Part shown: positions 32,801 through 60,475 of the stretch, piece after piece
Numbering within the stretch: the first letter of the stretch is position 1
How the letters are laid out: the number at the start of each line of letters is the position of its first letter
Translations under genes and position numbers: made by a program
Source: Euglena gracilis
Lineage: Eukaryota
Length of the DNA: 64,000 nt
Direction of reading: 5' to 3'
Assembly (NCBI GenBank): GCA_039621445.1
Contig: CP154954.1
Coordinates: 31,396,012-31,460,011 of the forward strand
Notes under the pieces: generated by a model
The model's database searches: none
What the model was told of the DNA's origin: nothing
The model's input: only the letters and a program-made list of their open reading frames with translations

Positions 32801-35800
32801 GGGTTGCGGACGGGGTGCTTGTTGGGGTGGCAGACGGGGTGGCCGTTGGTGTCGGGGTTGGGGTGGCGGTTGGGGTGGTGGTTGGGGTGGCCGATGGGGT
32901 GCTGGTCGGCGTGTCTGTGGGTGTGGCGGAGGGACTGGCGGTTGGGGTGGCAGTTGGGGTGGCGGACGGGGTGCTTGTAGGGGTACTGGACGGAGTTGCA
33001 GAGGGCGTGTCAGTCGGGGTGGGGGCAGAGCACCGACCTCCGAAGAGCAATACTATGCTTCAGCTGGAGATTAGCAGGGAAGGGACGGACAAAATGCAGA
33101 GTCACTGAAACTTCATGAACGGAAGATATCTGACAACGAGAATGGTACCCGGGGGAGGTTGGGGCCCTGAAAAGTGGAGGGCGTGGCTGTGGGGGTCGCG
33201 GAGGGCGTGGCAGTCGGGGTGGGGCTGGGCGTCGCGGACGGCGTGGCGGTGGGCGTGGCGGATGGCGTGGCCGAGGGCGTGGCCGTTGGTGTGGCGGACG
33301 GTGTGGCAGTGGGCGTGGGGGACGGTGTGGTTGAAGGCGTGGCGGTCGGGGTGGCGGACGGCGTCGCTGAGGGTGTGGCGGTGGGTGTTGCCGAGGGCGT
33401 GGCCGTGGGCGTGGCGGACGGTGTGGCGGACGGCGTTGGGGTTGGGGTGGGGACATGGGAGAGCATCCTGAGGAAATACTCTCGAAGTGCTCTGCCGGAC
33501 CCAACAGACAGGCAGAAGCTTGAACAAAGGTCTGGCTGGGAGAACAGTCAGCGTGCCTGGCTTCAAAACTATCCTGCAAACGGGGACGCTTCGCCTCCCT
33601 GGAGTCATCCTTACGCAGATTGTGTCCCCGCCACTCCCTGACGGACACCAATACACAAGGACTGCATCAGACAGGGAGACTTCTTTGAGCTCTCCCCCAG
33701 GGGTCAATCTGGGCCCAGATTTTTTCCATGCATCGCGCTCTAGGGGGTCCCACTCAGCACGGGGGGGGGGGCATGGCCTGGAGCCAACCTTCGGGTGATA
33801 AAATTGAAAGTGCTGGGTATTACTAGAACTGAATGCCTTTTCCACTAACAACACTTTGAAAATTCGCAAAAATAGACGCACAGGAGATTTTTTAGCTTCA
33901 TTAGCACAAATTCTATGCAGCAACAGCCTCGAATTTTCTGTTGTCTTGGAGAATCCTGTTTACGCGTGTGATATAGACCCCGGTTTCGCGGACCTTTTGG
34001 TGTCTGTAAAATTGAGCTTAAAGAAGGCGAAAAGCCAATGCATCAGAAATTTTCCATTGTTCAGGAGAACAAGAAGTAGCTCTCAACGAAATGATTGAAA
34101 AGCTCGTAGAGCGGCAACGAGGTGTATCTAATTCGTGCACATGTAACATTGCGGCTGCCTCATACTACTAGGACCCTCATACTGTTGGGACGCCCAGGGG
34201 GTCCCCGTTGAATGAGGCTGCCAACATTGTTGGAACAAAGAGATGCACATGGACCCAAACATTTTTGCACAAACACACACAAATGCATTGATTGGGGACA
34301 AACAATGACTTTCTCAAAAGTTCAGGATTTTTTTTTGCGGTTTTTACGCTGTTTACGCAAGCTGTGCCTCAGCAGCCTATCACTTGCCCATGCACTTTCA
34401 AAAAAGCAAAGTTGTTAACAAAAAATTCCATTTCTTTCGCATGATCTTGTGCATCGACCTTGCCAGGAAGACGAATCTTGAGGCAGGCGCCATGGATGCA
34501 CGCAGCATATGAAAGGGGGGACAGGCGAGCTGGCTCTGCCCTGGATGGCTGAAGGGGTTGCGGTGGGTGTTCCAGAAGGCGTGGCGGACGGCGTGGTCGT
34601 GGGCGTCGACGACGGTGTGCTGGTGGGCGTAGGGGAGGGCGTTGCTGACGGGGTGGCTGTCGGCGTGCCGGAGGGGGTTGCCGACGGCGTGGAGGTGGGG
34701 GTGGTTGCAGGGGAGGAGCTCCAGATACACGCAACGGGGGTTTGGGGGGTGGCATACCGAAATATCCCTTGACCCTGAAAATTAGCAGCAAAAGTCTTGG
34801 GGGTGATTAACAACCGACATGTCTGCCAACCACTGGCTACAAGCCGAATGGGATAGATTCTAGGTTTCTCCCTTTTGCTCCCCTTTGTTTGCTTGCTTTT
34901 GCAATGTCTCCGCGTTTATTTCCCAGCTCGATCAGTTTAGATCAGCTTTTTTCGGGGGGGGTGAATTACACATATATTAACATAACACATCAACATATAT
35001 CAACAAAACACATTTGTATATATCCTTGCTGATATAATTTCATGCAATTTGCATCGGACGGGTTGCAACCCTCTTCCATGACCCATAAGGGGACAGCATT
35101 TGCAGTTAACCTGAAAGCATTAAAAGCAGACTACAAGCCAAATCCTTGGACGCCCGATTTTTAATGCGTTCTTTTTTTTGCTTATTTTGTTCAAAAAAAT
35201 CGCCAAAATGCCAAAAGCATTTTTTTTCGGGTCCAGGTGTCCAAAACGATTTGGGAAGGTCACTGGGAAAAAAATTCAACTAGCTAGCACTGTTAGCAGA
35301 TCACCCCCCAGGAGGTCCACTGGGAGATTTCCACTGCCAAACTTGGACTGCTGCAATCGACCCCCCCCCCGGGGGAGAATGCGATCCCTAAGCAGAAGTG
35401 TGGACGGGAAAAACAAAGTGCAAGCAACCACGCTTTAGCGCTGTTAGCAGTCATATTTTTCAGTCCAATTCTGCCTCCATATACTAACAATCCCCCCTGA
35501 TTATCAGAAACTGATCTCCTGGTCAAATTATACCAAGCAGCATATTCATGTTCATACAAAACGGGGGCGGATCGGCAGGAATGCGGTGGCCAGTGAACAA
35601 GAGGTCACAAGAAATGGGGATCTAGAGGCAGAATCATCTGAATCGGACATGAGTGGGATTTGTCATAGACAGGGGATCAACATGAAATTTTCGAACAGGG
35701 TTCTGCATAACAACCAGTACAACTTTCCCACATATGGCACAAAGTGGGGCCCCCATACCTAGGGTATGGGGGGGGGTATGGGGGGGTATGGGGGGGGTAT

Positions 35801-60475: not shown

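Follow-up and report, generated by a model that had tools for sequence, protein, structure and literature searches.

Shared intron ends in a mucin-like repeat gene of Euglena gracilis belong to the known class of nonconventional introns and were probably multiplied by exon duplication

A stretch of 64,000 nucleotides of the Euglena gracilis genome (GenBank assembly GCA_039621445.1, contig CP154954.1, positions 31,396,012 to 31,460,011; hereafter the window) carries a long series of repeat exons whose introns begin and end with nearly the same sequences. A preliminary description of this series proposed that, if splice sites are defined by pairing of intron ends, any donor could be joined to any downstream acceptor, with in-frame skipping of exons and possibly exon circles as the outcome. 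What are these shared ends, how did they come to be shared, and do they make the order of splicing variable? The reading that we favour, with a probability of about three in four, is that of a minus-strand, mucin-like euglenid gene made of duplicated and homogenised exon modules, in which 13 of the 15 introns are ordinary nonconventional introns and two are apparent GT..AG introns.

The shared ends themselves are real. The donor motif RYCCAGGACGGAG, searched for in the whole window, gave 7 exact matches, all on the minus strand and exactly at 36578, 37821, 45846, 48493, 51641, 52238 and 60103; 0.26 were expected by chance and 7 matches were reached in 0/100 shuffles. With up to two mismatches allowed (≤2), the acceptor motif CTYTGYYTCTGYCCCC gave 11 matches, again all on the minus strand (1.06 expected). 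Nine of the acceptor sites are exact matches (36951, 44883, 46219, 48018, 48866, 51356, 52014, 56555 and 60476). The extra copies are an exact one at 51423-51438, a decoy within an intron, and one with two mismatches at 49111. Both motifs are absent from the remainder of the 64-kb window. The seven donors and nine acceptors of the preliminary description were therefore all recovered, in numbers far above chance. As the gene lies on the minus strand, a donor coordinate (e.g. 36578) denotes the first base of the intron and an acceptor coordinate (e.g. 36951) its last base.

The gene model was rebuilt independently, from the frame of the repeat and the letters found where each block ends. Between 32.5 and 60.5 kb the minus strand holds 16 blocks of a coding repeat with a 12-nt period (Thr-Pro-Ser-Ala, TPSA), which give 16 exons (Ea to Ep) and 15 introns (1 to 15). 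Fourteen introns are in phase 0 and one (42742..38097) is in phase 1. The joined model measures 4,943 nt, or 1,647 codons, with 0 stops and 94.7% T+P+S+A. Exons bounded by nonconventional (NC) introns on both sides have lengths of 156, 216, 276, 372 or 432 nt, each divisible by 12, and correspond to 52-144 codons. The earlier counts of 14 phase-0 introns among 15 and of blocks of 52-144 amino acids are both reproduced by this model. Thirteen introns start with N3-CAG and end with CTG-N5 (in one case ATG-N5) before an A; the two others read GT..AG. For these two, 56185..55170 and 42742..38097, the borders are deduced from the reading frame and the terminal dinucleotides, and they appear conventional.

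These ends can be compared with a code that is already published, for a class of introns on which Milanowski, Guminska and colleagues had worked earlier. Nomura et al. (2025, PMC12501133) describe, by knock-in mutagenesis, the code 5′-N3CDG…CH′GN5-6|R for Euglena nonconventional introns, with a demand for pairing potential just inside the CAG/CTG pair. According to the same paper, such introns make up 71.8% of E. agilis introns and, in the literature that it cites, are excised as circular RNA by a non-spliceosomal machinery. In our model N3-CAG is present in 14/14 defined donors, the one after exon Ep included, and CTG-N5|A in 13/14 acceptors; the acceptor of intron 14 reads ATG-N5, although in contigs this intron is spliced out. 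The downstream exon starts with A (ACC or ACA) in 14/14 cases. All 13 nonconventional introns end with CC, not AG, and the nonconventional 5′ dinucleotides are GT (6), AT (4), and AC, AG, GC and TT (1 each). Read in this light, the donor and acceptor consensus is the published code plus an adjoining stem (GACGGAG/CTCTGCC; CTCTGCCT before CTG), inherited by all copies. The interchangeable stems are those of a known intron class and not a device peculiar to this gene. The proposal that sites are defined by pairing of the ends accordingly holds in so far as it fits the pairing of CAG (+4 to +6) with CTG (-8 to -6); it does not hold as something specific to this gene, this being the Euglena code already in print, which governs the majority of introns in such genomes.

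Three other ways of reading these borders were rejected. The bare code alone is no predictor of sites: 1317 donor-type and 604 acceptor-type sites occur in 28,101 nt, far too many, and therefore the stem and the context must matter. A GT-AG reading of the core introns fails, since an AG precedes the 16-mer in some copies only and the contig joints lie after the 16-mer. Finally, a gene on the plus strand is incompatible with motif matches that are all on the minus strand, and both RNA-supported introns (14 and 15) violate the code when read on the plus strand.

The exons and introns of the model, from 5′ to 3′ of the gene, are as follows (the vertical bar marks a border):

60104..60475, minus strand: exon Ea, 372 nt, 124 codons, TPSA-type; supported by NC-code borders, by its near-identity to Eb and by the phase table.
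56555..60103, minus strand: intron 1, 3549 nt, nonconventional, ACC-CAG-GACGGAG ... CTCTGCTT-CTG-CCCCC|A; within a 3.92-kb tandem duplication, beyond the read-mapped stretch.
56186..56554, minus strand: exon Eb, 369 nt; putative 3′ border TCT|GTTTCG.
55170..56185, minus strand: intron 2, 1016 nt, putative GT..AG-like intron TCT|GTTTCG…CCCAAG|TCT, phase 0; beyond the RNA-mapped stretch.
54948..55169, minus strand: exon Ec, 222 nt.
52395..54947, minus strand: intron 3, 2553 nt, nonconventional, AGC-CAG-GATGAGC ... CTG-CATCC|A; cognate stem ranks 1/14.
52239..52394, minus strand: exon Ed, 156 nt, 52 codons.
52014..52238, minus strand: intron 4, 225 nt, nonconventional, GTC-CAG-GACGGAG ... CTCTGCCT-CTG-CCCCC|A.
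51642..52013, minus strand: exon Ee, 372 nt.
51356..51641, minus strand: intron 5, 286 nt, nonconventional; holds the decoy acceptor 51423-51438, then a 23-nt exon remnant.
51140..51355, minus strand: exon Ef, 216 nt, 72 codons; 93.1% identical to Eh.
48866..51139, minus strand: intron 6, 2274 nt, nonconventional, ATC-CAG-AACAGAT ... CTCTGCCT-CTG-CCCCC|A; acceptor border 48865 found in contig joints, partner ambiguous.
48494..48865, minus strand: exon Eg, 372 nt; 98.4% identical to Ei and 97.6% to Em.
48018..48493, minus strand: intron 7, 476 nt, nonconventional.
47802..48017, minus strand: exon Eh, 216 nt.
46219..47801, minus strand: intron 8, 1583 nt, nonconventional, GCC-CAG-AACAGAT ... CTG-CCCCC|A.
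45847..46218, minus strand: exon Ei, 372 nt.
44883..45846, minus strand: intron 9, 964 nt, nonconventional; acceptor border 44882 found in contig joints of both runs (X1 and X2, see below), with a donor side of 25 nt that suits Ei, El, Eg and Ee alike.
44451..44882, minus strand: exon Ej, 432 nt, 144 codons; exact-match contigs at 44628-44819 (X1) and 44637-44819 (X2).
43071..44450, minus strand: intron 10, 1380 nt, nonconventional, GTG-CAG-GGGTGGC ... CTG-TCTCC|A; best duplex is the cognate one with 70-nt ends.
42743..43070, minus strand: exon Ek, 328 nt; ends with a short non-repeat, Cys-containing stretch (42743-42810); no Pfam family.
38097..42742, minus strand: intron 11, 4646 nt, conventional-looking, CAAG|GTGAGG ... 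CCTAG|CC, phase 1; placed by the frame, with no RNA joint seen.
37822..38096, minus strand: exon El, 275 nt.
36951..37821, minus strand: intron 12, 871 nt, nonconventional.
36579..36950, minus strand: exon Em, 372 nt.
34703..36578, minus strand: intron 13, 1876 nt, nonconventional, ATC-CAG-GACGGAG ... CTG-CAACC|A.
34547..34702, minus strand: exon En, 156 nt, 52 codons; a spliced contig extends over it.
33449..34546, minus strand: intron 14, 1098 nt, nonconventional (3′ triplet variant), ATC-CAG-GGCAGAG ... CTCTCCC-ATG-TCCCC|A; contig joint in X1 and X2.
33173..33448, minus strand: exon Eo, 276 nt, 92 codons.
33021..33172, minus strand: intron 15, 152 nt, nonconventional, TTT-CAG-GGCCCC ... GGTGCT-CTG-CCCCC|A; contig joint in X1 and X2.
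32584..33020, minus strand: exon Ep, 437 nt; exact-match X1 contigs end at 32583, where an N3-CAG donor stands.
31538..32583, minus strand: additional nonconventional intron (predicted), ACA-CAG-GGGGCCGCC ... CTG-N6|A, with a stop some 3 codons beyond it.

Intron 2 could alternatively be read as a CGG-CCG nonconventional intron shifted by 1-2 nt, a reading that would break the frame. At the other end of the model, exon Ep is not the last exon: it ends at a further N3-CAG donor (32583), whose best partner among the code-compliant acceptors in 29000-32500 is 31538 (constrained stem of -22.9 kcal/mol). The gene is incomplete in the window, which holds its 3′ two-thirds or more, the 5′ end lying outside. 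Just downstream of the predicted gene end, a different Thr/Pro-rich repeat block (31110-31880, minus strand) is abutted by a long (CA)n/(TG)n microsatellite at 30700-31110; another long one lies at about 11200-11800.

Joint sequences from RNA-like data were sought in the part of the array at 32501-52500, to which read and contig mapping was confined; the joints described here are drawn from the 15 listed among 105. In Logan contigs of two runs (X1 and X2), the depth of exon bins was 4.4-27 (X1) and 25-160 (X2), and that of intron bins outside high-depth repeats 0.08-1.04 (X1) and 0-1.25 (X2), which is the pattern expected of RNA. Both runs contain the joint 33020>33173 of intron 15 (sides of 39 in X1 and 60 in X2) and the joint 33447>34546 of intron 14 (slide of 3 nt; sides of 61 and 168), the latter intron being also spanned by a 401-nt contig. 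Exact-match contigs of X1, with 0 other letters, cover 121 and 158 nt of Ep and 192 nt of Ej. The joints 44882>51642 and 48865>51642, likewise seen in both runs, confirm the border type of the core array, ...TCAGCC|ACC (a GCC|ACC junction). El, Ei, Eg and Ee all contain the sequence of the short sides (20-25 nt) of these two joints, and Ef and Em contain it in part; therefore splicing of neighbours (Ei>Ej, Ef>Eg or El>Em) fits these joints as well as skipping does. Four further joints, 32957>51287, 33361>37916, 44648>51889 and 44745>51873, fall inside repeat exons with sides of 21-22 nt and were set aside as repeat or paralogue mis-placements.

Some of the mapped material lies outside the exons. 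Pre-mRNA or carried-over DNA could account for a few exact contigs of low depth (2.6-3.8) that lie within introns or span the Em acceptor. Contig word depth reaches thousands in both runs within introns 11, 8 and 6 (38504-39837, 46508-47174 and 49176-51176), and is 377-676 (X1) and 147-324 (X2) at 40505-42505; these stretches are dispersed repeats present in many copies, probably transposons; related copies stand at 38975-39258 and 50064-50175. G/C-rich simple repeats at 35836-36502 and 38153-38500 attract most of the mapped raw RNA reads, in which loose ends of poly-G/poly-C appear together with 'opposite strand' joints (36143/38350 and 36168/38367). One weak inverted repeat (41 nt, 73%) is the only one found near these two stretches, and the pile-up may stem from transcribed low-complexity repeats elsewhere in the genome or from a library artefact.

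What the gene encodes is, from its translation, a very long Thr/Pro/Ser/Ala-rich protein of at least 1,647 codons that can be called mucin-like. None of the 4 exons scanned, Ek among them, contains a Pfam family. A protein search with exon Eo among proteins of similar length returned nothing at E ≤ 1e-10. With exon Ep, searched among longer proteins, 1296 of the 8000 candidates scored gave matches; the 120 matches listed are to unrelated domains and reach at most 78% identity over part of the query. They are compositional, to Pro/Thr (PT) linkers across many phyla, and no near-identical transcript-derived protein is among the matches listed. The role of a 'stalk' suggested earlier is unsupported, no anchor or domain having been found in a gene whose 5′ end lies beyond the window. 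Rfam gave 0 matches over the whole 64-kb window, which is about 52% G+C, contains (CA)n microsatellites and dispersed repeats, and looks eukaryotic.

The locus also bears on gene annotation. Across the repeat exons at 32500-60500, all three minus-strand frames and plus-strand frames are open. Calling based on open reading frames would be misled there, strand and frame being fixed solely by the intron code together with the RNA joints; nor can a gene of this kind be modelled by GT-AG rules.

The second part of the question concerns the origin of the shared ends. Exon sizes recur (372 nt five times, 216 nt and 156 nt twice each), and so do sequences: identity is 97.6-98.7% among Eg, Ei and Em, about 90-91% between these three and Ee, and 93.1% between Ef and Eh, and Ea differs from Eb by 8 mismatches in 372 positions. 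Exons can be told apart by single letters, such as T at -14 from the 3′ end in Ed, A at -7 in Eh, T at -1 in Ea and G at -21 in Em and Ef, and Ee, Ef, Eh, Ej and Ea differ in their first 30 nt. The flanking introns fall into families that do not track those of the exons. Upstream flanks group as Ea/Eb, Ee/Ef, and Eg/Ei with Em more distant. On the downstream side there are two groups, Ed/Ee/Eg and Ef/Eh/El, and three flanks that stand by themselves, those of Ea, Ei and Em. Over 200 nt, the scores of local alignment are 108 for Ee/Ef, 147 for Eg/Ei and 129-155 for Ed/Ee/Eg. The introns downstream of Eg, Ei and Em have only the 13-nt motif in common. Such a flank mosaic would be the expected outcome of tandem duplication and later unequal exchange inside the repeat exons, and the identity of the shared motifs would then come from duplication and homogenisation of exon units. 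That the 13-nt and 16-nt ends are kept beside unrelated intron interiors fits selection on the splicing stem. At 56186-64000 a 3.92-kb tandem duplication, with segments 90-100% identical, takes in exons Ea and Eb with their upstream introns and reaches the end of the window; a further exon copy is expected just past it, near 64.4 kb.

The proposed course of events can be put as follows. Exon modules would have arisen by tandem duplication of exon-plus-intron units that were later homogenised. Intron borders would be set by pairing of CAG (+4 to +6) with CTG (-8 to -6) and by the adjoining stem, with spacers of 3 nt and 5 nt and with a purine opening the following exon. Each donor would use the nearest downstream acceptor, so that the default product is presumably the full, ordered mRNA, and any skipping would be a by-product of shared ends, not a designed diversification system.

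Do the stems themselves impose this order? Duplex energies were calculated all versus all, the check proposed in the preliminary description, for constrained stems of 18-nt and 20-nt ends with the CAG:CTG pair forced, and in a second run with 70-nt ends. Cognate stems average -10.4 kcal/mol, compared to -6.05 ± 3.89 for shuffled flanks (n=600); downstream non-cognate pairs average -8.84 (n=78) and upstream or self pairs -10.13 (n=91). With 18/20-nt ends the true acceptor comes first for 2/13 donors, those of Ec>Ed and Eo>Ep, and with 70-nt ends for 1/13, that of Ej>Ek, in line with the claim of interchangeable ends. In these models the stems of the array core are interchangeable, and the outer introns 15, 3 and 10 have private stems; that of intron 15 reaches -19.3 kcal/mol (rank 1/14). 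Of four introns folded whole and without constraint, introns 5 and 15 have ends that pair in register, and introns 4 and 7 do not.

Intron 5 offers a natural case of competition. Its decoy acceptor (51423-51438) complies with the published code and stands 67 nt upstream of the true acceptor; it is followed by the 23-nt exon remnant and then by an intron-7-like tail. Use of the decoy would add 67 nt and shift the frame. The predicted stem is stronger for the true acceptor (-11.9 kcal/mol) than for the decoy (-6.1 kcal/mol), C>T changes in the true acceptor giving a continuous 11-pair helix, and in this calculation the difference looks like selection for correct partner choice.

What enforces the order of splicing is a fair question, and it is sharpened by reports on timing. 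Nonconventional introns are described as being removed after conventional ones, with almost no single-intron intermediates and possibly a coordinated start (PMC6221363); on that description, late and near-simultaneous removal means that all ends may coexist on one pre-mRNA.

Several observations weigh against the reading of an expressed, orderly spliced gene with ordinary nonconventional introns. Cognate stems are not better than non-cognate ones, so that ordered splicing is assumed rather than explained. One of the RNA-supported introns, intron 14, has ATG in place of CHG. Contigs confirm individually only 2/15 introns (14 and 15), and they come from runs (X1 and X2) whose RNA label is a guess. 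At 9/397 positions the contig spanning intron 14 departs from the window, and its source may be an allele, another strain or a close paralogue. Over Ep (32584-32990) lies an X2 contig of 980 nt and depth 101, which has 20 mismatches among 407 nt and 'goes back 298'; it indicates that elsewhere in the genome there is a paralogue or allele that is expressed more highly and has its repeats arranged differently. Exon depth stays <0.5, and no exon joints occur, in the raw reads of two RNA runs, X21 and X24, of which about 5-6% was read in each case; these two runs are therefore uninformative on isoforms.

How far, then, might shared ends go in varying the product? One possibility is that donors often join non-adjacent acceptors, with in-frame loss of blocks of 52-144 codons, exon circles and a ladder of protein lengths. 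The energies leave room for it, cognate acceptors being best for so few donors and upstream or self pairs being as good as cognate ones (-10.13 and -10.4). Skipping would also stay in frame, the lengths of NC-bounded exons being multiples of 3, in fact of 12, and late joint removal would leave all ends side by side (PMC6221363). Mutation of the CTG in a knocked-in intron is moreover reported to have given incidental exon skipping (PMC12501133). Against this, the two skipping-like joints (44882>51642 and 48865>51642) have ambiguous sides and fit neighbour splicing, and the E. gracilis transcriptome survey, as summarised in PMC11170887, counts only 11 skipped-exon events, one of them canonical. 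In intron 5 the decoy, at nearly equal distance, has the weaker stem, and nothing points to regulation or function of length variants. We regard frequent skipping as unlikely. A milder form seems a little less so and is offered tentatively: partner choice among the 13 near-identical paired ends, probably removed late and together, would be partly stochastic and would yield an in-frame ladder of mucin-like lengths together with exon circles. If true, this would be the first case in which pairing-defined euglenid splicing generates protein diversity.

Two other explanations would change what the locus is. The 13-nt and 16-nt ends might be terminal inverted repeats of an intron-generating element resembling a MITE (a miniature transposable element with inverted repeats), inserted repeatedly at the same target. 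The conserved ends beside unrelated interiors downstream of Eg, Ei and Em, in exons that are 97.6-98.7% identical, would suit such an element, and a MITE-like origin of nonconventional introns has been proposed (PMC12501133). Random insertion into a continuous repeat would not, however, give recurring module lengths of 372, 216 and 156 nt; intron flanks are duplicated along with the exons, the 3.92-kb unit being repeated whole, the motifs occur nowhere else in the 64-kb window, and no target-site duplication is visible beyond a 2-nt CC overlap. We hold this origin to be very improbable here. Alternatively, the array could be a silent or decaying paralogue whose apparent expression and splicing are cross-mapping from a related expressed gene. 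That 2521/3528 X1 contigs and 1111/1655 X2 contigs are only 95-99% alike speaks for it, as do the depth-101 contig over Ep and the raw RNA reads that barely cover the exons. It is countered by the exact-match X1 contigs over Ep and Ej, by a 4,943-nt model that has no stop and keeps its phase through 15 introns, and by retention of the code at all intron ends; hardly any weight is left to it. The duplicated, homogenised gene with ordinary nonconventional introns is thus the account that we retain: its shared ends are of an already known class, of which the gene adds a further example.

Set beside known systems, the product shares with the PTS (Pro/Thr/Ser-rich) repeats of mucins and with PT-rich linkers a composition of 94.7% T+P+S+A, a 12-nt (TPSA) period and the lack of a recognisable domain. 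The PTS domains of animal mucins usually lie in one large exon, whereas the repeat is here cut into 16 modules; the likeness is one of composition and repeats, the N-terminus lying outside the window. In Dscam, introns are spliceosomal GT-AG introns, and RNA pairing of docking sites with selector sequences selects one of several mutually exclusive exons. As in Dscam, the choice of partner could here depend on intramolecular pairing among competing complementary sites; unlike in Dscam, pairing itself defines the intron borders, and no alternative choice has come to light. Animal back-splicing is driven by competing intronic complementary sequences, and in a similar manner whether a product of our locus is linear or circular could be settled by rival inverted-repeat pairings within introns or across them, although the machinery differs from that of NC introns. 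Nomura et al. (PMC12501133) themselves draw an analogy of NC introns to animal back-splicing.

The closest comparison is with the euglenid NC introns. Common to them and to the introns described here are the lack of GT-AG, the CAG at +4 to +6 and CTG at -8 to -6 with spacers of 3 and 5 nt, a downstream exon that starts with a purine, a short stem beside CAG/CTG, and conventional introns, here two apparent ones, in the same gene. What differs is that one gene has 13 of them with almost one and the same stem, a consequence of the paralogy of its exon units, and that one RNA-supported intron has ATG for CHG. The published code rests on introns of ordinary genes, whereas this is a tandem exon array; in titles and opening lines of abstracts of the papers searched, no literature linking nonconventional introns with exon duplication or exon arrays was found, nor any of relevance on threonine-rich, mucin-like proteins of Euglena. 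Where that code was, in the published account, worked out on single introns, this locus brings together on one transcript 13 nonconventional introns with near-identical ends, in-frame exons and a natural decoy acceptor, and so provides a natural test-bed for partner choice.

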